Virus record (IMG/VR): IMGVR_UViG_3300009671_000009
Span: 1-64,000 of that record
Length of the DNA: 64,000 nucleotides
DNA from: a virus
Lineage: Duplodnaviria > Caudoviricetes
Reading direction: 5' to 3' (one strand)
Shown here: piece after piece, positions 2,741 to 61,577 of the stretch
How positions within the stretch are numbered: the stretch's first letter is position 1
Layout: every line of letters begins with the position of its first letter
Translations under genes and position numbers: made by a program
Notes under the pieces: model-generated
Seen by the model: only the letters and a program-made list of their open reading frames with translations
Told to the model about the DNA's origin: nothing
Database searches by the model: none

Positions 2741-3184
2741 ATGAACCTACTAAACACAAATCCTCTCACCATGAAAAGTGAAATGTCAGCAGAAAGACAG
2801 CTTAGAACTGCAAACGGTATCATTGCCGTGATGTTTCTCATCATAGTAGGCATTCTTATCTCTAACTGGATAGGCGCAGCAAATAAAGTACGCCATGATA
2901 AAGAAGTGCGCCTGCAGCAAGAACGAGATAAGGCCCAAATTGCTATACTGGAAGATGAGAACGAACTTCTACGAAAAGAACTCAAATCTCTGAATGCTCG
3001 TGTTGACCAATTGATCGCTATCAGTAAAAGATCAACCACAGTGAACCATTATTATTATTACTTCTATGAAGGCGAATTGGTTGAGCAAGAGACCGAGAAA
3101 GTAGAATGGACACAAGGTAGCCCTGACCCACATACTATGCAACTGCCTAGAACAAAACCATTTGAAAGGAGGGAAGAACAATGA
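2741..3184 (+). CDS. membrane-anchored coiled-coil hypothetical protein
   Basis: hydrophobic helix followed by heptad-rich segment; RBS. Confidence 0.65.
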   Translation: MNLLNTNPLTMKSEMSAERQLRTANGIIAVMFLIIVGILISNWIGAANKVRHDKEVRLQQERDKAQIAILEDENELLRKELKSLNARVDQLIAISKRSTTVNHYYYYFYEGELVEQETEKVEWTQGSPDPHTMQLPRTKPFERREEQ

Positions 3185-3444
3185 ATGCAGATTGCAAATA
3201 TCCAGGCATCAAAATTGCAGAAGGTATTATCGAGAAATTCGAAGACCAGATAGAACAGATTCGACTATATCTTCTAGCATGTACTACCATTGGATCCCGT
3301 CCATCTGTCAACGTTATGAAGTCTACCTACCCGTTGTTTGATTTCGATCTAGTTAACCAAAAACAACTAGGTAAGATATTCGTAGGCGGTGAATTGGTTG
3401 TATCTCACCAATGTAAAGAGATAGCTCGGTTCAAGCTTATATGA
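3181..3444 (+). CDS. hypothetical protein
   Basis: ORF, overlapping start/stop, RBS. Confidence 0.6.
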   Translation: MNADCKYPGIKIAEGIIEKFEDQIEQIRLYLLACTTIGSRPSVNVMKSTYPLFDFDLVNQKQLGKIFVGGELVVSHQCKEIARFKLI

Positions 3445-23895: not shown

Positions 23896-24411
23896 TTGAA
23901 ATTATGCTTAAATTGTAATAAACCTATTAAACCCAGAAATAAGTTTTGTAACAGTCATTGTGCTGCTTCCTATAACAATCGTATTAGGAGCATTCATAAA
24001 AAGATTAAATACTGCTTAAAGTGCGGGCTAGAACTAAAATCTGGGCAATACAAATTCTGTAGCAGTCAATGCAAAAGAGATTATGATTACGATACATATA
24101 TTTCCAGATGGAAACAGAGACTGGAGTCGGGGACTCAACCCAGTTTATGGGGAGGAGTCTCAAAATATGTGAGCCGATATTTGTTTGAAAAGCATGAAAA
24201 CAAATGTTCAAAATGTCAATGGGGAGAAATAAATATTTACACCAATAGTATACCATTAGAAATTGAACATATTGACGGCAATTATCAGAATAATTATGAG
24301 GAAAACCTGACTTTGTTATGCCCAAACTGCCATTCTTTGACTTCTACTTATAGAGGCGCAAACAGAGGAAAAGGTCGCCCTATTACATGGCATCCAAATG
24401 TAATGGGATAG
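23896..24411 (+). CDS. HNH endonuclease
   Basis: LEIEHIDGNYQNN..ENLTLLCPNCH; N-terminal zinc fingers. Confidence 0.9.
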   Translation: MKLCLNCNKPIKPRNKFCNSHCAASYNNRIRSIHKKIKYCLKCGLELKSGQYKFCSSQCKRDYDYDTYISRWKQRLESGTQPSLWGGVSKYVSRYLFEKHENKCSKCQWGEINIYTNSIPLEIEHIDGNYQNNYEENLTLLCPNCHSLTSTYRGANRGKGRPITWHPNVMG

Positions 24412-26226: not shown

Positions 26227-27654
26227 ATGATCAGAAGAGAGCCCTTACCTGAATCATGGGCACCCTTAATTCTTATGAAGGTGCCAGATGATGTTAAGTT
26301 TATAACACAAGAACTTAATAAAGCTGGATATGCGGCCTATCTTGTCGGAGGCGCAGTTCGAGACCTTCTGTTAGGCCTTGAGCCCAAAGACTGGGACGTG
26401 GCCACTAATGCCCCTGTTGATCTTATGTTAGAGATCTTTCTAGGATCTGAACTTGTAGGAGCCTCTTTTGGTGTAGTGTTATGGAAAGGTATCCAAATAG
26501 CCAAATTCCGTCAAGAAGAAGGCTATTCTGACAATAGACATCCTGATGAAGTTAGATTCGTAGGAACCCTTGAAGAAGATCTTGAACGTAGAGACTTCAC
26601 GATCAATGCTATTGCTATTGGACGAGATAGCTCTACAGATCCATTCTGTCAGGTTTTCCCAGAATCTGCACTTAAAGATCTTAATGCGGGTATAATCTCT
26701 GCTGTTGGGAATGCCAACGAAAGATTCAAAGAGGATGCCTTGAGGATGATGAGAGCAGCAAGGTTTACTGCTAAACTTAAAGGATTCGAGATTGACGATC
26801 GCACGTATTATGCAATGATATACAATGCAAAGCTTTTGCAGAATATATCCGCAGAACGAATCCAAGAAGAGCTAAATAAAACTCTTCTTTCACAGAATCC
26901 TGTGAAGGGTATTGATGTAATGAGGCATACGCATCTTTTAGAATATGTCATTCCTGAAATGCAGTCATGTTATGGTTTTCCTCAAAACGGATGGCACCGC
27001 TATGATGTGTTCACTCACATCTTAAAAGTATTGTCATATACCGCTGAAAGATCTGATTCTCTTACGATGAGACTAGCCGCTTTATTCCACGATATTGGAA
27101 AACCAGCAAGTCTTACTATTGATGAGGAAGGTAAGCGGCATTTCTATGGAAATCGATCTGATATCCCAACGCATTGGGATGCAGGAGCAAACATTACTTA
27201 TAAAAGGTTAAGCGAGCTTCGCTATGACAAACAAACTATTAAAGATGTTTGCACTCTTGTAAGAAATCATATGAATATAAATAAAGACGGCTTGTCACCA
27301 AAGGCTATTCGTAAACGACTTAACAAAGTTGGATATGATATGCTTATAAATCTTGTTGAACTCAAGCGAGCTGACTTTAAAGGAAGCGGAACTGAGAACG
27401 ATGCAGAAATCGATCAATTTATCGATAGTCTCTTAGCTAAAGTGAACCAAGTTACGGAATCAAATCCGCCAACCTCATTAAGACATTTGGCTGTCAATGG
27501 TGATGACATCATAGCAGCTATCGGTGTCAAACCTGGCAAGTGGATTGGTACTGTTCTATCAATAATGATGGATGAAGTATTAAACGATCCATCTAAAAAC
27601 ACAAGAGATTATCTGCTCCAACGAGCAGTTGAAATCTATAAATCAGGGGAGTAG
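26227..27654 (+). CDS. cca: CCA tRNA nucleotidyltransferase with HD domain
   Basis: VGGAVRD, DWDVAT, RRDFTINA, EDALRMMRA, ERI..EL, LFHDIGKP. Confidence 0.93.
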   Translation: MIRREPLPESWAPLILMKVPDDVKFITQELNKAGYAAYLVGGAVRDLLLGLEPKDWDVATNAPVDLMLEIFLGSELVGASFGVVLWKGIQIAKFRQEEGYSDNRHPDEVRFVGTLEEDLERRDFTINAIAIGRDSSTDPFCQVFPESALKDLNAGIISAVGNANERFKEDALRMMRAARFTAKLKGFEIDDRTYYAMIYNAKLLQNISAERIQEELNKTLLSQNPVKGIDVMRHTHLLEYVIPEMQSCYGFPQNGWHRYDVFTHILKVLSYTAERSDSLTMRLAALFHDIGKPASLTIDEEGKRHFYGNRSDIPTHWDAGANITYKRLSELRYDKQTIKDVCTLVRNHMNINKDGLSPKAIRKRLNKVGYDMLINLVELKRADFKGSGTENDAEIDQFIDSLLAKVNQVTESNPPTSLRHLAVNGDDIIAAIGVKPGKWIGTVLSIMMDEVLNDPSKNTRDYLLQRAVEIYKSGE

Positions 27655-28745: not shown

Positions 28746-29119
28746 TAGTACCAGACAGGTGAAAATTCTAGGCCAGAAGAAGTAATCCTTGCCGCACAAA
28801 ATCTGGTGGTGCGATTAGAAAGTGTTCCAACGGCTCCAGTAGTAGGCCATGGACAAACCTGGAGTGACGCAGTCTGGTACTATTAAAGAAGTTCTGTCGT
28901 TCAGCCCCAAGAAATCCTCGCATGCTATTGAGGATTTTAATTCTAGGAGGACGCGCTTGCCCTAGCATAAGGGCCATACGGCGTATGCAGATGCAAATCC
29001 TGCCAGAACTTCGTAGTAGAGAGACTTCTAGCTTAAAAAGTAAAGCGCCTGCTTTCAATAGCAGGAGATAGTGGTGGGGCCGCAGATGCTGCCGCAATCC
29101 ACTGTTGTCTCTCTATCTA
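28746..29119 (+). ncRNA. three tandem structured RNAs, the last two expanded tRNA-like folds
   Basis: closing stems 28746/28882, 28888/29012, 29014/29119; D-, anticodon- and T-arm-like elements with hairpin insertions. Confidence 0.55.
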
Positions 29120-29273: not shown

Positions 29274-29350
29274 GGCCCTATCGTCTAGTGGCTTAGGACA
29301 TATCTCTTCTCGGAGATAAGACTGAGATTCGAATTCTCATGGGGCTACCA
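29274..29350 (+). tRNA. tRNA-Glu(CTC)-like, 8-nt anticodon loop
   Basis: TATCT-CTTCTCGG-AGATA; Glu-type D arm; CCA. Confidence 0.75.
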
Positions 29351-30858: not shown

Positions 30859-30959
30859 GGGGGTTTCGTCTAGCGGAGACTATGTCTGCAGAGACAAGGT
30901 CATAGGACATTCACCTTCTCGGGTGAAAGATGTGAGTTCGAATCTTACAACCCCTACCA
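30859..30959 (+). tRNA. tRNA-Glu(CTC)-like with D-loop hairpin insertion and 8-nt loop
   Basis: TTCAC-CTTCTCGG-GTGAA; about 24-nt insert in the D loop; CCA. Confidence 0.7.
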
Positions 30960-31270: not shown

Positions 31271-31753
31271 TTGAACAACGAAAAATCCAACCAATTAGGT
31301 ATATCCTTTTCAACTGCATGTGGGAGACTTCGTAAAGAAGTAATGTTTCATCTCGTACAAAAATGTGAGATGGATATATGCTGTAGATGTGGAACCAAAA
31401 TATTATGTTCTCAGGATCTAACAATCGATCATATAATGCCGTGGCTACATAGCGAAAATCCAGCAGAAAGTTTCTTTGACATAAACAATATTGCTTTTAG
31501 CCATTCAAAATGTAATTACGGCCTTAATCGCGGATCGTTTAAGCCAAAAAGCTCTACTGGCTACAAAGGGGTATACTATCAGAAAGATAGGAAGCGTAAT
31601 AAGAGATTTAAAGCAATGATCTCTATTAAAGACAAAATGAAAGTTATAGGATACTTCGATACACCAATAGAAGCAGCGAAAGCATATGACGAAGTAGCGG
31701 TAGCTACGTTCAACGAAAATGCAGTAACTAACAAGTCGCTAGGTTTAATTTAA
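31271..31753 (+). CDS. HNH endonuclease with AP2 DNA-binding domain
   Basis: TIDHI...NIAFSHSKCN; STGYKGVY...GYFDTPIEAAKAYD. Confidence 0.88.
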   Translation: MNNEKSNQLGISFSTACGRLRKEVMFHLVQKCEMDICCRCGTKILCSQDLTIDHIMPWLHSENPAESFFDINNIAFSHSKCNYGLNRGSFKPKSSTGYKGVYYQKDRKRNKRFKAMISIKDKMKVIGYFDTPIEAAKAYDEVAVATFNENAVTNKSLGLI

Positions 31754-32288: not shown

Positions 32289-32317
32289 TTGACAAAAGTA
32301 ACAAAGCATGGTAGAAT
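32289..32317 (+). promoter_or_regulatory. sigma-A/70 promoter driving the Y-RNA-like array
   Basis: TTGACA-17-TAGAAT with extended TG, 7 nt before unit 1. Confidence 0.85.
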
Positions 32318-32324
32318 AGGAAAT

Positions 32325-32390
32325 GTGAGGCGTTTAAGAAGAGCTACTTCGATTTGGACGAAACACGGCTTTTCTAGCAATTTTCCTCAC
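32325..32390 (+). ncRNA. Y-RNA-like unit 1 (cargo: anticodon-like stem-loop, TTG)
   Basis: GTGAGGCG..TACTTCG...TTTTCCTCAC. Confidence 0.75.
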
Positions 32391-32408
32391 GTATAATAAG
32401 TATATAAG

Positions 32409-32552
32409 ATCAAATGAGGCGTTTTGTGGCGATACTTCGACTTTTTTAGCTAAAGAGGGGTCTGGGTTCGAATCCCAGCTTACAGGGAAACCTGCATGTG
32501 GTGTAACGGGAGCACGTAAAAGGACGCGTCACTACCTTTTTCCTCATTTGAT
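32409..32552 (+). ncRNA. Y-RNA-like unit 2 (YrlA-like permuted tRNA domain)
   Basis: scaffold plus T arm CTGGG-TTCGAAT-CCCAG, GAAA-capped acceptor, D arm. Confidence 0.8.
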
Positions 32553-32566
32553 TTAAATAAGATTAC

Positions 32567-32709
32567 AACTGAGGCGTTAGAAAGAGTTACTTCGCATTAG
32601 GAGCGCGGCTGTGGAGGTTCAAGTCCTTCTCCCCTGACCAATTTTATATCAGGGGATAGCTTAACTGGCAGAGCACGTAAACGTTACTTTTTCGCTATTT
32701 TCCTCAGTT
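32567..32709 (+). ncRNA. Y-RNA-like unit 3 (complete permuted tRNA with internal CCA, TAG loop)
   Basis: scaffold plus T arm, TCCCCTG-A-CCA, linker, CAGGGGA-TA-D arm. Confidence 0.85.
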
Positions 32710-32718
32710 AAGTTTAAC

Positions 32719-32813
32719 AAATGGGGCGCTTGATTGGGATACTTCGAGGATTATCAAATCTTCACCAGGGCGGCAGCCGACATACATGCACCTAGCCTAT
32801 ATTTACCCCATTT
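32719..32813 (+). ncRNA. Y-RNA-like unit 4
   Basis: compensatory GGGG/CCCC outer stem; CG-N11-TACTTCG. Confidence 0.75.
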
Positions 32814-32827
32814 AAATAAGCTCAATA

Positions 32828-32969
32828 ACAGTGAGGCGTCAGATAGAGTTACTTCGTTGCAGCCAAAAATTGCGATATAGTTTAACACTGGTTAAAACAC
32901 CAGGGAAACCTGGAGAATTCGGTTCAAGTCCGTCTTAATAGGAACTTTGTCGCCCATTTACCTCACTGT
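32828..32969 (+). ncRNA. Y-RNA-like unit 5 (tRNA permuted at the T-arm/acceptor junction)
   Basis: scaffold plus GTTGCA-G-CCA, TGCGATA-TA-D arm, GAAA-capped anticodon stem, T arm. Confidence 0.8.
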
Positions 32970-32976
32970 AAATTTT

Positions 32977-33108
32977 AAACTTGGGTGTCGGTTACATACC
33001 GACAGGGAAACTAGATAGGGACGTGCCGCCCCTAATAACCTACCATTACCCGTTCTACTGCTTCTAGTGCTGTAGGTAGACGCTGTGAAAGTCAGCAAGC
33101 CCAAGTTT
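32977..33108 (+). ncRNA. structured RNA inside the array lacking the Y-like scaffold
   Basis: AAACTTGGG/CCCAAGTTT closing stem, several internal hairpins. Confidence 0.55.
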
Positions 33109-33124
33109 TTATAAAGTTTAATAG

Positions 33125-33340
33125 TAAGCGAAGCGCTTGAAGGGGTTACTTCTTAATTCTAAAAGATGAATTGGTTTAGAAGGAAACTTCTATCTCAAGC
33201 ACGACGGGCGGGTGCCACCCCGATATAACGGCATGGCTGCGTGAGCCAAGAGCGCTTTCACCCTAATGGCCTCCTTTCCCAAGTTAAGGCCCCTTTCGAG
33301 GATAATGGGTGGGTTCCCTCTTCACTAATTTCTTCGCTTA
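33125..33340 (+). ncRNA. Y-RNA-like unit 6 (large non-tRNA cargo)
   Basis: compensatory GAAG/CTTC outer stem; CG-N11-TACTTC. Confidence 0.75.
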
Positions 33341-33386
33341 TTTAAGTTTCCCTTGATGGGTTTCCATTATAAGCATCACTCCTTCA

Positions 33387-33485
33387 TAACTAAACGAGGC
33401 GACAGTAAGGGATACTTCGCACAAGAACCTGGCCTAGAGCTTGGTAAAAAAACGAGCCTTTACAGCCATTTCCCTCGTTTAGTTA
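33387..33485 (+). ncRNA. Y-RNA-like unit 7
   Basis: TAACTAAACGAGG/CCTCGTTTAGTTA; GTAAGGG/CCTTTAC. Confidence 0.8.
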
Positions 33486-33548
33486 CGTAATCAAAGTGAG
33501 ATTTTACCTCGCTTTAAAATAAAAGTTTGTCCACTAAATTATACAACT

Positions 33549-33623
33549 AGAGAGGCGTCAGTCAGGGATACTTCGATAACTGTTAATTATCTAAAAAGGG
33601 CCTTGGCAAACTTTTTCCTCTCT
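33549..33623 (+). ncRNA. Y-RNA-like unit 8 (cargo: bare Asn anticodon stem-loop)
   Basis: scaffold plus GATAA-CTGTTAA-TTATC. Confidence 0.8.
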
Positions 33624-33637
33624 CGATAAAGTTCAAC

Positions 33638-33780
33638 AATCGAGGCGACAGAGAGCGTTACTTCGCCTGTTAAGCCGTAGGTCGTAGGTTCGAATCCTCC
33701 CGCCCCCGTCAAATTATATGGGGGTGTAGCTCAGTGGATAGAGCAACGTAAACGTACGTTCTCGACCTTTTCCCTCGATT
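33638..33780 (+). ncRNA. Y-RNA-like unit 9 (complete permuted tRNA, GTT loop)
   Basis: scaffold plus CTGTTAA loop, T arm, CGCCCCC/GGGGGTG acceptor, D arm. Confidence 0.85.
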
Positions 33781-33790
33781 AAAAAAATTC

Positions 33791-33931
33791 AGATGAGGCG
33801 ACAGTAAGGGATACTTCAAAGGAAATCAGCGTGTCGTGGGTTCAAGTCCCACTCCCCTGACTAATCAGGGGGTAGCTCAGTTGGCAGAGCAACCGACAAT
33901 AAAGAGGCCTTTACAACCATTTTCCTCATCT
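33791..33931 (+). ncRNA. Y-RNA-like unit 10 (YrlA-like permuted tRNA domain)
   Basis: scaffold plus GTGGG-TTCAAGT-CCCAC, TCCCCTG/CAGGGGG, D arm. Confidence 0.85.
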
Positions 33932-33948
33932 AAATTTAAGCTAACTTT

Positions 33949-33990
33949 AACGGGAGTGGTCTATCTAAAGGTAGATTGCTCACGTTTTTT
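33949..33990 (+). terminator. hairpin plus T-run between the array and the Ro60 gene (terminator or attenuator)
   Basis: AACG..GAGTGGTCTATC/GGTAGATTGCTC..CGTT then TTTT. Confidence 0.5.
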
Positions 33991-34016
33991 ATTACTTCCA
34001 ATAAGGAGGCGTTCGA

Positions 34017-35519
34017 ATGGCAAGAGTAAAACAAATGTTTGGCACTCCGCAAATTCCTGTTGCGGACACCACGAATCGTGATGGGTATGATGCTTACACC
34101 CGAAGCATCTACGAGCAATTCGTTCAAACTCTGTTCTGCAATACACTGGGTAATACCTACTATGCAGACAGCAAAGAAATGCTCAAAGAAGCCAGCAAAG
34201 TGCACCAAGACATGCTGAAGGAAGACAAGTTCTTCTTTGCTGACGCGCTACCCGTAGCACGCCAAGAAGGGTGCATGAAACTTCAACCTGTCTATGCTCT
34301 GTCTTTGTTAGCTGCAACCGACCCAGGCTTGTTTGAAAAAACATTCCCTGGAGTGGTATTGATCCCATCCGATCTCCAAGACTTCATGACTATCCTTGAT
34401 AGTGCTGGTCGTGGACAAGGTGGCCGCGCTGTAAAGCGAACAGTTGCCAACTGGATGAATGAAAAGATGTCCGAATACTGGGCGATTAAATACGACGGTG
34501 ACGCTCGTGGCTATTCTCTCGGTGATTTGGTTCAGACCATTCATCCGAAACCTAAGAACAGCTTTGTCTCTGGTCTTTATGGTTACTTAATCGGCTCAGA
34601 AAAGGTTAATCTTGCAGAGTACAAGCAGTTAACTGCTTATCAGGCTCTGAAGAAGACGACCGATCCGAAGGAACAGATTCGTCTGGTGCGCGAAGGCAGA
34701 CTTCCCCACGAAGTCGTGACTGGCGTAACCAAAATGAGTCCCGACCTTTGGGACGCTCTTGTCCAAGATATGCCTGTCTTTGCTACCTTACGTAACCTGA
34801 ATGCCCTGGATAGGGTTGGTGTCCTCGACAAAAATCGTAAGATTATCGAAGAGAGACTCACCAATCCTGAAATACTGGCTAAGTCCAAGATTCTGCCGTT
34901 CAGGTTCCTAAATGCCTTCGACAACGTATCCAAGGCGTGGGTCAAAGATGCTCTACGGTCGGCGGTTGAAGCTACCTTCAATAACCTACCTGAGATCTCT
35001 GGCAAAACTGCGATCTTCTTGGACGTCTCTGGGTCGATGAGCGGAGAATATTTGAAGATCGGTTCGGTCTTCGCAATAGCTCTCTACAAAAAGACTCGTG
35101 GCAACGGTTTGTTCTGGTTGTTCGATACTCGTGTATTTGATGGACAACCTTCATTGCATGATTCGATCTTAACCCAAGCAAACAAAATCCACACCAGAGG
35201 CGGCACCAATACAGGTGCTCCGATGCGAAAATTATGGCAAGACCGTGAAAAAGTAGACAACATCATCATGATTACTGATGAACAGCAAAACACTGGGAAT
35301 CCGTTTTATGGTGAGTTAGCTGAATATCGGAGACACATTAACCCGAATGTAAAAACATTCATTATTGATATCTCTGGTTATCGGCAAGCCATGGTTCCTC
35401 AAGGCGATCCGAATACTTTCTACATCTACGGATGGTCGGATCAAGTCCTCAACTATATTTCAATGGCCTCCAAAGGCTTTGGAACTATCGTTGATGCGAT
35501 CAAAGCCAAAAGAAAGTAA
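34017..35519 (+). CDS. rsr: Ro60/TROVE domain RNA-binding protein (Rsr) with C-terminal vWA
   Basis: TNRDGYDAY, NTYY, MP..ATLRNLN, ILPFRFL.A, vWA DVSGSM and ITDEQ, GWSD. Confidence 0.93.
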   Translation: MARVKQMFGTPQIPVADTTNRDGYDAYTRSIYEQFVQTLFCNTLGNTYYADSKEMLKEASKVHQDMLKEDKFFFADALPVARQEGCMKLQPVYALSLLAATDPGLFEKTFPGVVLIPSDLQDFMTILDSAGRGQGGRAVKRTVANWMNEKMSEYWAIKYDGDARGYSLGDLVQTIHPKPKNSFVSGLYGYLIGSEKVNLAEYKQLTAYQALKKTTDPKEQIRLVREGRLPHEVVTGVTKMSPDLWDALVQDMPVFATLRNLNALDRVGVLDKNRKIIEERLTNPEILAKSKILPFRFLNAFDNVSKAWVKDALRSAVEATFNNLPEISGKTAIFLDVSGSMSGEYLKIGSVFAIALYKKTRGNGLFWLFDTRVFDGQPSLHDSILTQANKIHTRGGTNTGAPMRKLWQDREKVDNIIMITDEQQNTGNPFYGELAEYRRHINPNVKTFIIDISGYRQAMVPQGDPNTFYIYGWSDQVLNYISMASKGFGTIVDAIKAKRK

Positions 35520-35527
35520 CAATTAGG

Positions 35528-35555
35528 AGGCGATCAGAAATGATCGCCTTTTTTT
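35528..35555 (+). terminator. intrinsic terminator
   Basis: AGGCGATCA/TGATCGCCT plus T-run. Confidence 0.8.
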
Positions 35556-35564
35556 GTTCCCGAG

Positions 35565-37096: not shown

Positions 37097-37174
37097 GGTG
37101 ATGGTAGCTTAATTGGCTAGAGCCCCAGACTGTGAATCTGGAGAGTGCGAGTTCGAATCTCGTCCTTCACCCCA
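37097..37174 (+). tRNA. tRNA-His(GTG)
   Basis: G-1:C73, CCAGA-CTGTGAA-TCTGG, CCA. Confidence 0.92.
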
Positions 37175-37198
37175 ACTTTAAATATCAAAGGAAGAAAT

Positions 37199-37615
37199 AT
37201 GGCATATCCATACAAACGCCTCAAAATAAAAGGTAAATGCATTGATAGGCATAGGCTAGTGATGGAAGAAAAACTAGGTCGAAAATTAGAATCATGGGAA
37301 ATAGTCCATCACAAAGACGAAGATAAATCCAATGATGAAGCAAACAATTTGGAACTAAGAACAAGATCGACCCATATAATTGATCATCTACCAAAACCTA
37401 TAGTTATGACTGAAGAAGTAAAACAGAAAATAAGTATTTCCAAACAAGGTTCCAAAAATCCAAGAGCAATTCTCACCGAAGAACAAGTCATTAGAATTAA
37501 AAAAGATCTTGGAGAAGGAATGGGCGTTAGATCATTAGCAAGAACGTTAAACATAGACCATAAAATAATTTCCGATATTAAAACAGGCAAAACATGGAAA
37601 CATGTTGTATTATGA
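37199..37615 (+). CDS. HNH endonuclease with C-terminal HTH
   Basis: HRLVME..LGR.L...EIVHHKDEDKSND..NNLEL. Confidence 0.88.
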   Translation: MAYPYKRLKIKGKCIDRHRLVMEEKLGRKLESWEIVHHKDEDKSNDEANNLELRTRSTHIIDHLPKPIVMTEEVKQKISISKQGSKNPRAILTEEQVIRIKKDLGEGMGVRSLARTLNIDHKIISDIKTGKTWKHVVL

Positions 37616-37892: not shown

Positions 37893-38399
37893 ATGTTAAC
37901 AGCAGAACAACTTTTTGAGAACAATGAGAAACTTGCTTATGATGTTGTACATAGAATGAAGATTTCAATACCAGGATTTGCACAAGAAGATTTATTTCAA
38001 ACGGCAAAGATGGGTCTCTGGCGAGCATGCCAGAAGTATGACGAAAAGCGAGGCAGGTTTTCTACATGGGCAGTAACATGCATTACAAATGAACTACTTA
38101 TGGCTTACCGAAAACATGCAGGCAAAGGCAGGAAAAAAGTAGAAGTTCTATCACTAGAAGGTTTGTGTGAGTCATGTGACGAAGGTCTCAACCCATACTA
38201 CTTCGCGCCACGCGTTGAATCTTTCGAAGATAGTCTGATAGGACTTATAGACACCGAAAACTTAGATCTTGAGACCGAAGAAAAAATAATTCTTGATATG
38301 AAGAAATATTTTACTGAATCCGAAGTCGAACAACTTCGTGATACTAGCAAGTGGAATCAACGAAAAATCCGTATGCGTGCCAGGGAACAAGCAGAATGA
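37893..38399 (+). CDS. sigma-70 family sigma factor (region 2)
   Basis: EDLFQ...GLWRA..KYD..RGRFSTWA..CITNEL. Confidence 0.85.
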   Translation: MLTAEQLFENNEKLAYDVVHRMKISIPGFAQEDLFQTAKMGLWRACQKYDEKRGRFSTWAVTCITNELLMAYRKHAGKGRKKVEVLSLEGLCESCDEGLNPYYFAPRVESFEDSLIGLIDTENLDLETEEKIILDMKKYFTESEVEQLRDTSKWNQRKIRMRAREQAE

Positions 38400-39737: not shown

Positions 39738-39998
39738 ATGGATCCCATAACTCTATTGGTCATGGCAGGAGTTGCCTTTGGAGTCAACGTAGTATGTGAT
39801 AAGGTTGACTTTTTAAGGAATATTACTCACAGTCGAGTAATGAGTGCTTCCACCGAAGAGCTAATCAAACAACTCAAGGGAGTACAAACTAACCCCGAAT
39901 TATTTACAGCCATGGTAAGTAGCAAAGAAGGAAGAACACTAGATGAAACTACTTGTGGGTTTAACCCCCCAAAGGACAGCATTAACACTCAGCTTTGA
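39738..39998 (+). CDS. hypothetical protein
   Basis: AGGAGAGG RBS. Confidence 0.55.
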   Translation: MDPITLLVMAGVAFGVNVVCDKVDFLRNITHSRVMSASTEELIKQLKGVQTNPELFTAMVSSKEGRTLDETTCGFNPPKDSINTQL

Positions 39999-42900
39999 TT
40001 ACAATCCTGCCATCATTACTCGGCTCAAGAACCGAGTTTATGGGCGTGCATATGATGGAGATCTAAAATGCTGGGTGTTGCCATTAGCAAGCTTTGACGA
40101 TCTTGTTCAAGAGTTTGGAGCAATGATTGAATTAACTGTGCCATTTAAAGAAATAGTGGAGGCTATAGATAGTATTGCCCCAGTAGTTGGTACTGTTGAT
40201 ATGCAAGCAGCTCAAGTTTTAAAACTAAAACCCTATGACTATCAAATTATAGGAGGAGCGGCGTTTCTTCCTAATATTAAATGTGGAATACTGGCAGATG
40301 TGCCAGGGTTAGGTAAGTGCCTAACGCCTGACTCTCGCATTTACATGAATGGTGCTAATACTACACTTCAGCAAATATGGGATAGCTATGTACGAGAATT
40401 GTCTTTTGACGGAGAAGGATATTGGTCTTCTCCGTCAAAAGACCTGTATGTTCCATCGTTGGACAATGGCAAGTTAATATATTCTAAGGTTAAACGAATA
40501 TATCGACAATGGATAGATGCACCCATCAAAGTCATAAAACTCACAAATGGTTCTGTTTTGAGAGCAACATTAACTGAAAAATTATTCGATGGCTATAGCT
40601 GGAGCAATAATTTGCAACCTGGAGATTGTGTAGCTATTCCAAATGTATTGCCTGATTTCAAACACAATATTAATGCGCAGTCGCAAATCGTGAAACTAAT
40701 TGCATGGCAACTAGCTGAGGGACACGAAGCTTCCCATGGCCACAGTTTCAGGATATATCAAGATAATATTGATGTATTGAACCATATAGCAAGTTTATTA
40801 TCCTATTTGAATATTCAATTTGATATAAAGCATGAACCTGGGAAATGTCCATATATAAGAGGCCGTAGTAAAGAATATCATAATATAATGACTAGTTATG
40901 ACTACGCCTGGGGAGCCAAGTCTAAAGACAAAAGAATTCCTAGCTTTATTTTTAATTTGCCTGACAAACTGCTACGGACTTTTCTTTCGGTCTTTTTTGA
41001 CGCAGAATCAAATGTTAATGTGTCAACTAGCAACATGGAAATAACAAGTGCTTCTTCTGAAATAATATTTGGTATTAAACAACTCTTGCTTCGTTTTGGC
41101 ATTAAAATGAATACTGCAGAATACATGAAATGTGCCACTAACGGAACAAGAATTAAAAGAAAATATTACAGAGGATATGTCTCTGGAGAAGACCTTGTGA
41201 GATTTTATCATACTATAGGCTATTGCTACGAATATAAAATGTCTGCATTGTCAAAGGTAGCCAATAAAAAACATAATAGCAACATATATGTATATCCAAT
41301 TAAAAAAGCATTTGAGAACTTCACAGATTCTGTGAAGATTCCTCCAAGATATTTCAAGTACAGGAAAGATTACTTGACTACAAATAAACTACCTAGTATA
41401 GATGGCTTAAGAAAGATGTCAAAAGGTTTTGATTATGTATTGTCTGGAGAAGCTGAATCAGACTATAAGAAGCTAAAGCCTAGTAAATGGACAGTCAAGA
41501 CCTTGGAATCTTTCAAAAACGCAGATTACTTACAAATTGCCAACGTAAAAGATAAAATAAATCATTTTTTGCACAGTGACGTAGCATATGTACGAATAGA
41601 CTCAATAAGCTATGAACAATATTCTGGCTGGGTATATGATTTGGAAATAGAAAATACTCACAACTTTATTGCAGAAGGAATGTGTGTTCATAATACAATT
41701 CAGACATTTTTGGGCTTTGCTTCACTGTGTGAGCGAGGCTTAGCCCAAAAGTGCCTTGTCTTTTGCAAAGCAAACCTGAAATCGCAGTGGTTGTCAGAGT
41801 TAGAGAAATTTACTTCTTACAAAGGAATCAAAATCAAAGGAACACCAGAACAAAGGCTTGCTTTGTACGAGGAGGCAGCAAAACCTGAATATCAGTTTAT
41901 ATTTGTTAACTACGAATTCCTGATTCATGACAAAAAATATGTTAAAGAGTGCGAACGCAAGACCAAAGAAAATGAAAAGCTAAAAGCGGCAGGTAAGAAA
42001 ACTAAAAGAGCCGCGAAGGGCTTTGACGATTTCGAGAATCTAGAATATCTAATGAGGCAGTGTCAAGTCCTTGTAATGGACGAGGCCCAAAAAGTAAAGA
42101 ATGATTCATCTCAAATTCATAAGAATCTGTTTAAAATGGTATATGGCACGAAAACATATCCATCGATACCGCCAGAATACCGCTGGCTACTAACAGGAAC
42201 CCCAATTGAGAATGAACCTGAAGATATTTATAACTTATTTAAGTTTGTAAACCAGTCCGTACTTGGACATAATCCAAATACCTTCAAATACCGTTATTAT
42301 GAAGGAAGGTACCACGAAAAAGTAAGAAAAGACATGCTTAAAGACCTCAGTATGAGGATCGCACCGTATATGTTACGGAGAACCCAAGAAAATGTCAAAC
42401 GAGCGTTTCCTAAAGTCCGTATTGATGAAATGCTTCTAGACATGACAAATGATCAAATTATCTTACATGATATTCTTAAAGAAATTACTAGGGATCTTAT
42501 AGATGGTGTAAAACACCCTGAAATAGGAAACGATGATTATTCACCAATCGGGATATTTAGTTTGTTGCTAAGAGTTGCAGATAATCCTGATTTGCTATTT
42601 ACATCTGAAAGTGACCTGGCTAGAAGTCTAGCTAAGAAACATTTAAAAACTCCTGGGCATGAATGCCCTAAAATAGAATGGATATGCGATTACTTAGAAG
42701 CACGCAAACAATTTGAACCTGATGCAAAGACCATTATATTTACCAGAAGTGATGATATGGCACATCTTACACGCGAATCATTACTTCAAGGTACTTACAA
42801 AGACAACGATATCATCTTGTTTGTAGGAGGCATGTCCGAGAAACAGCGGGATACAGCAAAGGCAAGATTTTGGAAAGACGGAAAGATCTTTATATCAACT

Positions 42901-43182
42901 GATGCTGGTTCGGAAGGGCTTAACCTCCAATGTGCCAACGTGGAAATCAACATTGATCTTCCGCCTACTCCGTCAAGACTTGCACAGAGAATTGGCCGCA
43001 TTAAACGAGATCAATCTGAGTTTTCACATGTTAGGATTATTAATCTTATTTCAAAAGATTCTATAGATGAGCGAATCCTCAAAATAATCTATGATAAACA
43101 ATCTATTATTGACAGTGTCATTGAAGGTAATATTGCAGACATCAATCTTACGCAAAGCGTGCTTCTGGAACTACTGTCGTAA
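39943..43182 (+). CDS. SNF2-family helicase containing an intein
   Basis: LADVPGLGK|T, DEAQ, LLTGTP.EN, STDAGSEGLNLQ, QRIGRI.R. Confidence 0.92.
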   Translation: MKLLVGLTPQRTALTLSFDYNPAIITRLKNRVYGRAYDGDLKCWVLPLASFDDLVQEFGAMIELTVPFKEIVEAIDSIAPVVGTVDMQAAQVLKLKPYDYQIIGGAAFLPNIKCGILADVPGLGKCLTPDSRIYMNGANTTLQQIWDSYVRELSFDGEGYWSSPSKDLYVPSLDNGKLIYSKVKRIYRQWIDAPIKVIKLTNGSVLRATLTEKLFDGYSWSNNLQPGDCVAIPNVLPDFKHNINAQSQIVKLIAWQLAEGHEASHGHSFRIYQDNIDVLNHIASLLSYLNIQFDIKHEPGKCPYIRGRSKEYHNIMTSYDYAWGAKSKDKRIPSFIFNLPDKLLRTFLSVFFDAESNVNVSTSNMEITSASSEIIFGIKQLLLRFGIKMNTAEYMKCATNGTRIKRKYYRGYVSGEDLVRFYHTIGYCYEYKMSALSKVANKKHNSNIYVYPIKKAFENFTDSVKIPPRYFKYRKDYLTTNKLPSIDGLRKMSKGFDYVLSGEAESDYKKLKPSKWTVKTLESFKNADYLQIANVKDKINHFLHSDVAYVRIDSISYEQYSGWVYDLEIENTHNFIAEGMCVHNTIQTFLGFASLCERGLAQKCLVFCKANLKSQWLSELEKFTSYKGIKIKGTPEQRLALYEEAAKPEYQFIFVNYEFLIHDKKYVKECERKTKENEKLKAAGKKTKRAAKGFDDFENLEYLMRQCQVLVMDEAQKVKNDSSQIHKNLFKMVYGTKTYPSIPPEYRWLLTGTPIENEPEDIYNLFKFVNQSVLGHNPNTFKYRYYEGRYHEKVRKDMLKDLSMRIAPYMLRRTQENVKRAFPKVRIDEMLLDMTNDQIILHDILKEITRDLIDGVKHPEIGNDDYSPIGIFSLLLRVADNPDLLFTSESDLARSLAKKHLKTPGHECPKIEWICDYLEARKQFEPDAKTIIFTRSDDMAHLTRESLLQGTYKDNDIILFVGGMSEKQRDTAKARFWKDGKIFISTDAGSEGLNLQCANVEINIDLPPTPSRLAQRIGRIKRDQSEFSHVRIINLISKDSIDERILKIIYDKQSIIDSVIEGNIADINLTQSVLLELLS
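40318..41694 (+). mobile_element. intein with LAGLIDADG homing endonuclease (459 aa)
   Basis: CLTPDS...VYDLEI..THNFIAEG.CVHN|T inserted in Walker A. Confidence 0.92.
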
Positions 43183-59398: not shown

Positions 59399-59878
59399 GT
59401 GGCCTTGGTGCCTAAGCCAAAGAAATTCAGATACGAACGCAAAGAAATATACACCGTTGAAGCTGTATTGAGTAAAGTTTTATTTAAATCTAAGCTTCCC
59501 AAGGGTGCAAGCACCAAGGTTAACTTCGATGGCGACCTTGTAAGAATGACATCGACGATGTACCAGAACTTTCTTGTTCATGGTACTAAATGTGTTCGAT
59601 GTGGAGTAGAAGGAAAATTCTTTGCCAAAGAGCGTAGTCCTAGAGACAAATCATATCACTTCAACCTCTACGGCTTTGACGAAAATGGCAGAGAATTAAT
59701 GATGACTCGGGATCACATAATTCCAAGATCCCGAGGCGGCAGCGATCATCTTTCAAACCTACAACCTATGTGCGAAAGATGTAACTCCGCCAAAGGAAAT
59801 GTGTTGGAGGAGGAGATACTAAGTGTCACAGCTTATTGTGGAGATCTGCAAGATTCAGAATCTCTCGAAGCATCCTAA
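59399..59878 (+). CDS. HNH endonuclease
   Basis: TRDHIIPRSRGGSD.LSNLQPMCERCN. Confidence 0.88.
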   Translation: MALVPKPKKFRYERKEIYTVEAVLSKVLFKSKLPKGASTKVNFDGDLVRMTSTMYQNFLVHGTKCVRCGVEGKFFAKERSPRDKSYHFNLYGFDENGRELMMTRDHIIPRSRGGSDHLSNLQPMCERCNSAKGNVLEEEILSVTAYCGDLQDSESLEAS

Positions 59879-59943: not shown

Positions 59944-60468
59944 ATGTATGATAAAGATGATTTTATTATTAGAGAATTCCCAGGTAGCAAAAGAAAACTC
60001 TACAGAGTTATATGTGATATATGTGGAGAAAAACAAGGATATTCATATCCAAGTTCAAAATTTAACTATTGCAAGAAGTGTCAATATGCAAAACTTTCTC
60101 AACAGTTTTCACGAGAAAAAATAGTAGGATTCTGTGAAGTATGCGGCACTAAAATAGAAAGATCTAAAAGCCAATGGGATCGTGCCAAACACCATGTATG
60201 TAGTAACAGTTGTCTAGGTATTTTTAGGCGAAAAGACATAACACAAGTTTCTAGAAGTCATTTAAGAATAAAAATGCTCCAATCAGGAATCCAACCTGCA
60301 TGTGTTATTTGCGGACATGATCATATATGGAATCTACAAGTACACCATAAGCAATTTGTTTGCATGGAAGGTGCTAATAAATTAGATAACCTTCAGTGGA
60401 TGTGTAAAAATTGCCACGGGGATTTGCATTATATGGAAGGAGAAGATACTGAAGAATGTCAAAACTAA
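59944..60468 (+). CDS. HNH endonuclease with zinc fingers
   Basis: LQVHHK....G.N.LDNLQWMCKNCH. Confidence 0.85.
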   Translation: MYDKDDFIIREFPGSKRKLYRVICDICGEKQGYSYPSSKFNYCKKCQYAKLSQQFSREKIVGFCEVCGTKIERSKSQWDRAKHHVCSNSCLGIFRRKDITQVSRSHLRIKMLQSGIQPACVICGHDHIWNLQVHHKQFVCMEGANKLDNLQWMCKNCHGDLHYMEGEDTEECQN

Positions 60469-61577
60469 TTGTTGAAATTGTCAGAATGAAATCTATGGAA
60501 AAGATTCCTACTGCTGATACTCTTTTAATTACTCAAGTAAAAGGCTGGTATTGTATCCTCAAAGATGATGGTACAATTAAGGATGGGGATCTTGCAGTAT
60601 ACATACCTATCGATTCAATCGTCCCTAACGAATTAGCTGACAAGTACAATCTCGAATACCTTAAAAATGGCAGTCGAGTTCGTACAGTCAAGCTCAGAGG
60701 CTACATAAGTCAGGGACTTGTTCTTCCTATTGATTGTCTCCCCGATGGAGACTGGAAAGAGGGCGACGATGTAGCTGAAGTTCTTGGTATTAAGAAATGG
60801 GAACCACCCAGTGCTGCTTGGCAACAGCCAGCAGCTAAGGGTAAGCGCACACGGAGCATGAAGAACAATCCCAATCCAGACTTTCGTAAATACACAGATA
60901 TTGACAATATCAAAAACTATCCAGGTATTTTCAATGAAGGTGACGAAGTTGTAGTCACAGAAAAGATACACGGTACGAATTTCAGAGTAGCGTACATAAA
61001 AAGATATACCAAAGGGGTATGGAGCAAGATTATATCTTGGCTCCTAGGAAAATACCAATTCCTAGTAGGTTCACACAATGTTCAGATCGGAGAAGGTCGT
61101 GAATGTGCATTTTATGGCGCTGACGTGTATAGCAAAATTGCTAAGCGGTATAAGCTGTACGACGTCATGAAAGAAAACCCTGGCTGTGAACTCTTCGGTG
61201 AAATCTACGGAGTTGACAGCGATACAGGGGCTAAGATCCAAGACCTTACATACGGAAAACCCGAACTTGACGTTGTATTTTTTGATCTTATCAAGGATGG
61301 ACAGTATGTGCCATTCGATGAGTTCATGAACTTCTGCAATCGATACAGCTTACCCACTGTGCCACTGCTATTCAGAGGGATTTTGACCCAAGGTATCATA
61401 GAAGCCTGTACTGCAGGCGAATCAGTGCTGGCCAACATTAATGGCGCTAAACAAATTCGTGAGGGAGCTGTTGTTAAGGATCCACTGGAGACCAGTCATC
61501 CAAGACTGGGTCGTAAGATACTTAAATCAATTAGCGAAGATTACCTATTACGTAAAGACGGTACTGAAAATCACTGA
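60456..61577 (+). CDS. RNA ligase, DRB0094/Rnl2-like family
   Basis: N-terminal OB fold (IP.AD, LRG.ISQGL); EKIHGTN, GEIYG, FFD, REGAVVK, KSISEDYL. Confidence 0.9.
   Translation: MSKLIVEIVRMKSMEKIPTADTLLITQVKGWYCILKDDGTIKDGDLAVYIPIDSIVPNELADKYNLEYLKNGSRVRTVKLRGYISQGLVLPIDCLPDGDWKEGDDVAEVLGIKKWEPPSAAWQQPAAKGKRTRSMKNNPNPDFRKYTDIDNIKNYPGIFNEGDEVVVTEKIHGTNFRVAYIKRYTKGVWSKIISWLLGKYQFLVGSHNVQIGEGRECAFYGADVYSKIAKRYKLYDVMKENPGCELFGEIYGVDSDTGAKIQDLTYGKPELDVVFFDLIKDGQYVPFDEFMNFCNRYSLPTVPLLFRGILTQGIIEACTAGESVLANINGAKQIREGAVVKDPLETSHPRLGRKILKSISEDYLLRKDGTENH

Follow-up and report, generated by a model that had tools for sequence, protein, structure and literature searches.

The first 64 kb of a complete virus genome (Duplodnaviria, Caudoviricetes; IMG/VR record IMGVR_UViG_3300009671_000009, 224,466 bp with direct terminal repeats) contain a tandem array of ten RNA units that probably constitutes a polycistronic operon of Y RNAs, the partners of a Ro60 protein (Rsr) encoded by the phage itself. 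This 64,000-nucleotide stretch is referred to as the window. The array covers positions 32323 to 33931 on the plus strand, with a promoter on its 5′ side and the Ro60 gene on its 3′ side. It lies 86 to 1694 nucleotides upstream of Ro60 on the same strand, and 86 to 90 nucleotides separate its end from the start of the Ro60 open reading frame. An earlier note on this DNA had put this distance at about 85 nucleotides. The anatomy of the array, the covariation of its helices, its homology to RNAs beside bacterial Ro60 genes, and its linkage to Ro60 were observed directly.

The common handle and its covariation

All ten scaffold units that the earlier note had placed in this region were recovered by their 5′ motif, which is located at positions 32327, 32416, 32571, 32723, 32833, 33130, 33396, 33552, 33642, and 33795. 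In the window, the motif occurs on the plus strand only, and the rest of the 224-kb genome contains one isolated match on the reverse strand. A stricter form of the motif with fixed spacing was matched nine times, compared to 0.12 matches expected from shuffled sequences. The units display the general layout of Y RNAs throughout, in which the ends of the RNA are paired into a helix with a conserved internal loop and a variable module (here called the cargo) is placed distally. The shared part, the handle, consists of a closing helix of 7 to 13 bp (13 bp in unit 2) ending in GRRG/CYYC, an asymmetric internal loop (CG and about four nucleotides on the 5′ side, about four to five nucleotides and UUU on the 3′ side), an inner helix of 5 to 8 bp, and the sequence UACUUC(G). 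The inner helix is followed by UUAC or AUAC, a YUAY-like element. Across all cargo classes, the most conserved segments are GAGGCG on the 5′ side, UUUUCCUC on the 3′ side, and UACUUC(G), a pattern as would be expected of a common protein-binding surface.

The helices of the handle are maintained by pairing rather than by sequence. Folded unit by unit, the outer stems extend 3 to 9 bp beyond GRRG/CYYC, and the sequences of these extensions are unrelated between units. The 5′ flank of each unit pairs over 3 to 9 bp with its own 3′ flank, but usually over 0 to 2 bp with those of the nine remaining units; the same applies to the inner helices, which vary in sequence and are paired in every unit, including the four inner stems quoted in the earlier note. 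The exchanges described there for the outer stems, GGGG/CCCC in unit 4 and GAAG/CTTC in unit 6, were also seen. In a set of 175 distinct units from 88 loci, the extension of the closing helix had a mean length of 5.1 bp with the unit's own partner strand and of 1.35 bp with swapped strands; for the inner helix, the values were 8.1 and 5.9 bp, respectively. RNAalifold assigned 30 consensus pairs to the YrlA type (38 bacterial units of the 122-nucleotide class), 17 of them with double changes. For the minimal type (ten units including units 1 and 8), which consists of little more than the handle, the handle alone accounted for 17 pairs, 11 of them changed on both sides.

Relationship to RNAs next to bacterial Ro60 genes

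The units were compared with 122 Ro60 loci (80 bacterial, 8 viral, and 34 metagenomic). In most of these, among them loci of Paenibacillus, Cohnella, Brevibacillus, and Thermoanaerobacterium as well as metagenomic and viral loci, the same handle (5′ motif and matching 3′ strand) was found in one to six copies shortly before Ro60, on the same strand. The association of the scaffold with TROVE genes elsewhere, which the earlier note had proposed as a check of its Y RNA reading, is thus borne out. Complete units were absent from 34 loci; one was found in 36 loci, two in 32, three in 15, four in three, five in one, and six in one, compared to ten in the window, although the unit finder relies on the handle motif and undercounts units in loci with divergent handles. 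Next in size are the sets of L090, a large viral contig of 128.9 kb with six units, and of the incomplete contig L013 with at least five. The supposition that the locus carries more units than usual was therefore correct, and the array is the largest set next to a true Ro60 gene in the sample; it is an expansion of a known system, not a new system. When viral contigs were scanned with DNA patterns of the handle and of the unit–unit junctions, the matches listed were mostly due to chance and included no further arrays, which speaks neither for nor against arrays elsewhere.

The bacterial units fall into three classes of about 122 nucleotides (T arm, acceptor-like hairpin, and D arm), about 100 to 105 nucleotides (T arm only), and about 85 nucleotides (no tRNA part). 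A covariance model (R1) was built from 38 bacterial units of the 122-nucleotide class, with no phage sequence in its training set. It matched seven of the ten phage units over their full length (in order, units 9, 10, 3, 2, 7, 5, and 4) with E values from 2.9e-24 to 5.7e-6, and the next hit in the window had an E value of 0.01. In five whole bacterial genomes, all R1 hits of at least 78 bits were located within about 7 kb of Ro60, most of them directly upstream. Weak full-length hits (35 to 37 bits) were found on other contigs in one of these genomes, and partial hits elsewhere resemble adjacent tRNA genes. The recovery of the phage units by R1 and the presence of the handle beside Ro60 in the related loci argue that the units are members of a Y RNA lineage that travels with Ro60 in Bacillota. 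This lineage scores below the threshold of the Rfam YrlA family (RF02553); at the gathering threshold, neither the window nor any of 12 related loci gave a YrlA hit. The array is therefore not annotated by the existing model, with which the earlier note had suggested a comparison. Apart from subthreshold YrlA scores and a tRNA match in unit 5, nothing was found by Rfam on the array. The cassette was probably acquired from a Bacillota host and then expanded via duplication and cargo exchange.

Some of the related loci also contain tRNA genes. In L090 (features at 1630–1935 and 3014–3383), the interval from the array to Ro60 contains tRNA genes and a full-length transfer-messenger RNA (tmRNA) gene that scored 159 bits. 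Between units 1 and 2 of the same contig, two tRNA halves about 230 nucleotides apart could pair as a single acceptor stem, and the gap may represent an intron. Three Cohnella loci (L017, L038, and L041) harbor clusters of four to ten tRNA genes about 0.1 to 1.5 kb upstream of the Y RNA units and Ro60, on the same strand. Beyond the cluster, an extra handle-bearing unit is located in L017 (complete) and in L041 (5′ motif only).

The Ro60 protein

The open reading frame downstream of the array, described earlier as Ro60/vWA, encodes a TROVE ring and a Ro60-type vWA domain. The latter scored 25.1 bits, slightly below the cut-off of 27.7 bits; its D-x-S-x-S metal site is intact and invariant in the alignment. 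Among sequences in the PDB, the protein matched Ro60 of Xenopus, human, Deinococcus, and Thermus phage phiLo with E values from 5e-21 to 6e-17. It is 55% to 62% identical to Ro60 of Bacillota (Thermoanaerobacterium, Thermoanaerobacter, Paenibacillus, Cohnella, Brevibacillus, and Moorella) but only 22% to 26% identical to Ro60 of known phages, and its closest relatives share 83%, 66%, and 64% of the residues. A megablast comparison of the locus with GenBank phages gave no match, nor did a single-protein scan of viral contigs for a close relative. In the known phages Mx1 and csAssE-Sib, there is no room upstream of Ro60 for a comparable array.

Cargoes of the ten units

The cargoes differ in every unit (Table 1) and measure 12 to 157 nucleotides in the partition used here, close to the range of about 15 to about 165 nucleotides given earlier. 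Four of them are of the YrlA type (units 2, 3, 9, and 10), one shows another permutation of tRNA parts (unit 5), two are short hairpins (units 1 and 8), and three are unique (units 4, 6, and 7). In units 3, 9, and 10, the handle leads into a variable region, followed by the T arm, a closed acceptor-like helix, the dinucleotide U-A, and the D arm, which returns into the handle. Unit 2 has the same arm order, with an imperfect GAAA-capped hairpin. The order in unit 5 is a closed acceptor-like hairpin, the D arm, a 5-bp GAAA-capped arm, and the T arm with a stem of 3 bp. Hence, the description of the array as a repertoire of tRNA mimics was too broad: only units 2, 3, 5, 9, and 10 are tRNA-like, and none of them copies a particular phage tRNA. 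Compared with the 24 tRNAs of the phage, these cargoes displayed only generic similarity of the T and D arms, and the copying of a specific phage tRNA was rejected. Homology of unit 4 to the 85-nucleotide bacterial class is not claimed, because the two have only a short G-rich word in common. For the cargo of unit 6 and for the spacers, neither an Rfam match (E values up to 10) nor a relative in any fetched locus was found.

Direct evidence for the modular design assumed before comes from units 7 and 10, whose handles are 95% identical, whereas their cargoes are 36% identical, which is as unlike as a random pair. Handle and cargo evolve as separate modules, either by cargo exchange or by homogenization of the handles.

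Besides the restricted number of tRNA-like cargoes, the earlier note did not mention three elements: a structured RNA between units 5 and 6, a hairpin in the spacer that follows unit 7, and a terminator-like hairpin ahead of Ro60. The RNA between units 5 and 6 includes a GAAA-capped element; it had no match in Rfam and no relative among the fetched loci. Kinship with a spacer element of L090 was rejected on account of a poor alignment and a fold z-score of +0.7 for the L090 element.

Table 1. Features of the array, the Ro60 gene, and RNA-related genes in the window (bits and E values refer to the covariance model R1 unless stated otherwise)
Feature	Position	Strand	Description
Sigma-70-type promoter	32289–32317	+	TTGACA, 17 nucleotides, TAGAAT, TG extension; 11 of 12 consensus positions
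Unit 1	32323–32392	+	Minimal Y RNA; handle and 4-bp hairpin with 7-nucleotide loop
Unit 2	32407–32554	+	Degenerate YrlA type; T arm, GAAA-capped hairpin in acceptor position, weak D arm; 53.4 bits, E 1e-11
Unit 3	32567–32709	+	YrlA type, permuted tRNA-like; V hairpin, T arm, acceptor-like hairpin, D arm; 77.9 bits; Rfam YrlA 18.6 bits
Unit 4	32719–32813	+	Handle variant GGGG/CCCC; non-tRNA cargo with two hairpins; 31.3 bits
Unit 5	32828–32969	+	Handle and tRNA-like domain of other order; 33.6 bits; Rfam tRNA 21.4 bits over 32877–32935
Structured RNA without handle (130 nucleotides)	32977–33108	+	Between units 5 and 6; 10-bp closing helix, then U-run; fold z-score −2.9
Unit 6	33123–33342	+	Handle variant GAAG/CUUC; 11-bp closing helix; unique 157-nucleotide multi-helix cargo
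Unit 7	33387–33485	+	Handle 95% identical to that of unit 10, unrelated short cargo; 13-bp closing helix; 39.9 bits
Small 8-bp hairpin	33493–33515	+	Spacer between units 7 and 8; z-score −1.8, weak
Unit 8	33549–33623	+	Minimal Y RNA; handle and 5-bp hairpin with 7-nucleotide loop CUGUUAA
Unit 9	33638–33780	+	YrlA type with 7-bp acceptor-like helix; 101.7 bits, E 2.9e-24 (best match to the bacterial family); Rfam YrlA 32.6 bits
Unit 10	33791–33931	+	YrlA type; 95.7 bits; Rfam YrlA 34.1 bits over the full model
Terminator-like 12-bp hairpin and U-run	~33949–33992	+	Between unit 10 and the Ro60 ribosome-binding site; z-score −2.8
Ro60/Rsr gene	34017–35519	+	500 amino acids; TROVE ring (Pfam E 9.8e-17) and Ro60-type vWA
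Intrinsic terminator	35525–35560	+	Downstream of Ro60
CCA-adding enzyme gene	26227–27654		
Sigma-factor-like gene	37893–38399		
Rnl2-type RNA ligase gene	60456–61577		

Proposed transcription and function

The consensus promoter reported earlier was found again at the same place with its TG extension, and the transcription start predicted from it coincides with the first base pairs of unit 1, the foot of its closing helix. Six of the nine spacers are 9 to 14 nucleotides long, and their G+C content of 7% to 36% is set off from the 41% to 52% of the units. Promoter, spacers, and terminators are consistent with an operon. A precedent is the polycistronic Yrn2–tRNA–Yrn1 precursor of Deinococcus (PMC4201824). 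We infer the transcription of the array as one unit, the processing of the transcript, the binding of the RNAs by Ro60, their partners, and their purpose from this arrangement and from published Y RNA systems. Starting from the one strong promoter, a single transcript of the array would begin at unit 1, and host RNases specific for single strands would cut it into separate RNAs, most likely at the short AU-rich spacers. The handle would then dock on the Ro60 ring. By analogy with the known Y RNAs, which combine a Ro60-binding part with an effector part (PMC4201824; bioRxiv 10.1101/312249), the variable cargo would be the effector module that gates the RNA-binding surfaces of Ro60 or tethers it to different partners. 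The tethers for different effectors suggested in the earlier note correspond to this published model and are plausible, and its view of the array as a modular library is a reasonable match to the same model. The host polynucleotide phosphorylase (PNPase) is the leading candidate partner, because this enzyme is a binding partner of the Deinococcus Y RNAs and co-purifies with YrlA and Rsr of Salmonella (bioRxiv 10.1101/312249), because it also binds Y-like RNAs in the case of phage phiLo (PMC12135203), and because the phage described here does not encode it. The outcome would be that RNA decay and RNA quality control are reshaped during infection. This mechanism, the published Y RNA model multiplied tenfold, is the best supported one. 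The terminator-like hairpin between unit 10 and Ro60 may in addition serve as an attenuator that sets the ratio of RNA to protein and keeps the RNAs in excess over the Ro60 message.

Five points weigh against a Ro60-bound Y RNA operon. First, the published Ro60-contact motif is only half present. In known Y RNAs, a 5′-proximal GNCGAA(N)G is the probable contact to Ro60, a YUAY element is conserved, and the genes lie on the same strand within 4 kb of Ro60 (PMC4201824); in the phage units, GNCG is invariant (GGCG or AGCG), but the next two bases are UU, UC, AC, or CU and never AA. Second, units 1, 6, and 8 were recognized by the handle motif and pairing only and not by R1 with default filters. 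Third, Rfam YrlA gave 34, 33, and 19 bits for units 10, 9, and 3, respectively, with a best score of 34.1 compared to the threshold of 69 bits. Fourth, the terminator-like hairpin separates the array from Ro60, which is why co-transcription of the two is not assured. Fifth, a search of the phage genome revealed neither RtcB nor a PNPase-type domain; any effector would therefore be supplied by the host or be one not known.

A tentative extension, suggested by the pair of units 7 and 10, is a combinatorial library in which one Ro60 ring is re-addressed to up to ten partners or targets by swapping the cargo, and in which some cargoes, such as the loops of units 8 and 9, might act in counter-defence against host systems that target tRNA or other RNA. 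We consider it possible, albeit rather doubtful. If true, Ro60 and its Y RNAs would form a programmable ribonucleoprotein platform of the phage instead of a single-purpose quality-control particle.

Alternative explanations

The RNAs could instead be mainly decoys or sponges for host enzymes of tRNA-directed defence (anticodon nucleases, tRNA-modifying toxins), with Ro60 only stabilizing or presenting them. We regard this as unlikely. The earlier note had likewise considered decoys for anticodon nucleases, and one observation speaks for that part: the seven-nucleotide loop CUGUUAA of units 8 and 9, found in these units only, is identical to the anticodon loop of the two tRNA-Asn genes of the phage. 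More generally, UACUUCG provides the 5′ strand for a small hairpin, which in Bacillota YrlA-type RNAs has up to 5 bp and a seven-nucleotide loop C-U-N-N-U-A-A. The hairpin was present in 54 of the 73 YrlA-type units in the sample, compared to 0.1% in shuffled sequences, although this count overstates the independent support since many of the units are from closely related species. The loop variants included CUUUUAA (24), CUUCUAA (14), and CUCUUAA (9) in the bacterial Ro60 loci L009 to L130. Judged from its sequence, this hairpin would be a look-alike of the anticodon stem-loop of tRNAs reading codons that start with A, set in the position of the variable arm. A discussion of it was not found in the main text of the 2014 paper by Chen et al. 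(PMC4201824). Decoys would also fit the neighborhood of the array, where an RNA ligase and a CCA-adding enzyme are encoded along with tRNA genes, and there is a precedent in the Ro60-like protein of phage Bas63, which counters the Ppl defence system (PMC11482910). However, YrlA-type domains carry the Ro60 handle instead of an anticodon arm with its loop, and their acceptor ends are closed, leaving no free CCA end (bioRxiv 10.1101/312249). Five cargoes are not tRNA-like at all, and no specific phage tRNA is copied by the others. Furthermore, the anticodon-like hairpin occurs chiefly in chromosomal copies of bacteria, which do not need a defence decoy; an origin as an anti-defence decoy is therefore unlikely. 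The decoy claim as a whole was graded as weak.

A second alternative would treat the units as a long structured 5′ leader, to which Ro60 binds on its own transcript to autoregulate its synthesis, without the formation of stable RNAs. Such a leader would suit the arrangement in nearly all loci, where the units immediately precede Ro60 on its strand, as well as the lack of a visible separate promoter in the interval between array and Ro60. The RNAs at this position in Salmonella, Mycobacterium smegmatis, and Deinococcus radiodurans nevertheless accumulate as stable Ro60-bound species (PMC4201824). A leader would hardly be expected to measure 1.6 kb, to contain ten different cargoes and nucleotides for tRNA-grade tertiary contacts, and to have a terminator-like hairpin before the gene, and in L090 the array is parted from Ro60 by the tmRNA gene, tRNA genes, and about 3 kb. 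This explanation is thus very unlikely. A reading of the region as tRNA-derived pseudogenes, a repeat now in decay and without function, is more improbable still: degenerate parts, as in the unit 2 D arm and the unit 5 T stem, would fit, but the handle is kept in all ten units, its helices change by compensatory substitution, and the same handle is conserved next to Ro60 across orders of Bacillota.

Significance of the array

Y RNAs have been found near Ro60 in 254 bacteria and 22 phages (PMC4201824); phages that have Ro60 together with Y RNAs have been known since 2014, and phage phiLo with two RNAs has been characterized biochemically (PMC12135203). No paper on a Y RNA array of this size was found in the literature. 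The array bears on the binding partners of the effector modules in bacterial Y RNAs and on the reason for their mimicry of tRNA. The systems studied have one or two RNAs per Ro60, whereas this locus offers ten natural RNAs with one handle and one cognate protein. Units 7 and 10, with near-identical handles and unrelated cargoes, provide together with the other units a ready set for mapping cargo to partner. The analysis also defines a Y RNA lineage that is widespread in Bacillota and that phages can expand well past the bacterial copy number.

Neighboring genes

All tRNA genes of the phage (24 in the genome, 13 of them in the window) are on the plus strand. One tRNA-Glu-like gene (29274–29350, ARAGORN) has an abnormal anticodon loop with a two-base "anticodon." It is located about 700 nucleotides upstream of a normal tRNA-Glu gene with a very similar acceptor and D arm and may be a frameshift-type or defective tRNA. 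Two Rfam tRNA matches are absent from the ARAGORN output (29022–29111, 30.5 bits, 90 nucleotides; 30859–30956, 40.1 bits, 98 nucleotides) and may contain long arms or insertions. Five free-standing HNH endonuclease genes (23896–24411, 31271–31753, 37145–37615, 59399–59878, and 59944–60468) are interspersed among tRNA and RNA-related genes, one of them shortly before the array region and another shortly after Ro60. The gene of an SNF2-family helicase (39943–43182) is split by an intein that carries a homing endonuclease domain of the LAGLIDADG type.

Comparison with known Y RNA systems

The closest counterparts are the RNAs adjacent to Ro60 in Bacillota (Paenibacillus, Cohnella, Brevibacillus, and Thermoanaerobacterium), from which R1 was derived. 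They share the handle, the helices, and the position relative to Ro60 with the phage units; however, they occur as one to five units of three classes instead of ten, and half of the phage cargoes are outside these classes.

YrlA and YrlB, which function with Rsr in Salmonella Typhimurium and M. smegmatis (PMC4201824; RF02553; bioRxiv 10.1101/312249), likewise have their genes on the Ro60 strand, no more than 4 kb from Ro60. In both systems, the two ends of the RNA form the Ro60-binding helix, which is predicted for the phage, and the UUAC or AUAC after the inner helix of the phage units is YUAY-like. The permuted tRNA module of YrlA (V region, T arm, closed acceptor-like hairpin, and D arm) recurs in units 3, 9, and 10 and in degenerate form in unit 2; it is absent from units 1, 4, 6, 7, and 8, and its parts have a different order in unit 5. 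The short hairpin-type units 1 and 8 are similar to YrlB. In contrast to the two genes in bacteria, ten are present here, on a phage genome that lacks an rtcBA operon. The phage handle (GAGGCG ... UUUUCCUC) does not keep the AA of GNCGAA, the Rfam scores reach half of the threshold, and three phage cargoes are without a known counterpart.

The complex of Rsr and PNPase with Yrn1 and Yrn2 of D. radiodurans (RYPER) resembles the phage locus in having several Y RNAs upstream of rsr, which form one precursor in Deinococcus. There, the effector module of the Y RNA links Ro60 with the exoribonuclease, and a similar role in the phage is proposed by analogy. The stem-loop between the D and T arms of Yrn1 occupies the position of the anticodon arm (Chen et al., PMC4201824), and the capped arm of unit 5 is placed likewise between its D and T arms. 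Yrn1 and Yrn2 have no sequence similarity to the phage units.

Among phages, the Ro60 of Thermus phage phiLo with Yrl1 and Yrl2 (PMC12135203; PDB 9KOP, 9L5Y) is the nearest parallel, with Y-like RNAs just upstream of a phage Ro60 gene. The phiLo protein binds both upstream RNAs and the host PNPase (PMC12135203), and use of the host enzyme has been proposed. The two Ro60 proteins are distant (E 6e-17, 24% identity), and both phiLo and the mycobacteriophages with YrlA genes differ from the array described here in their handle motifs and in having one or two RNAs instead of ten.

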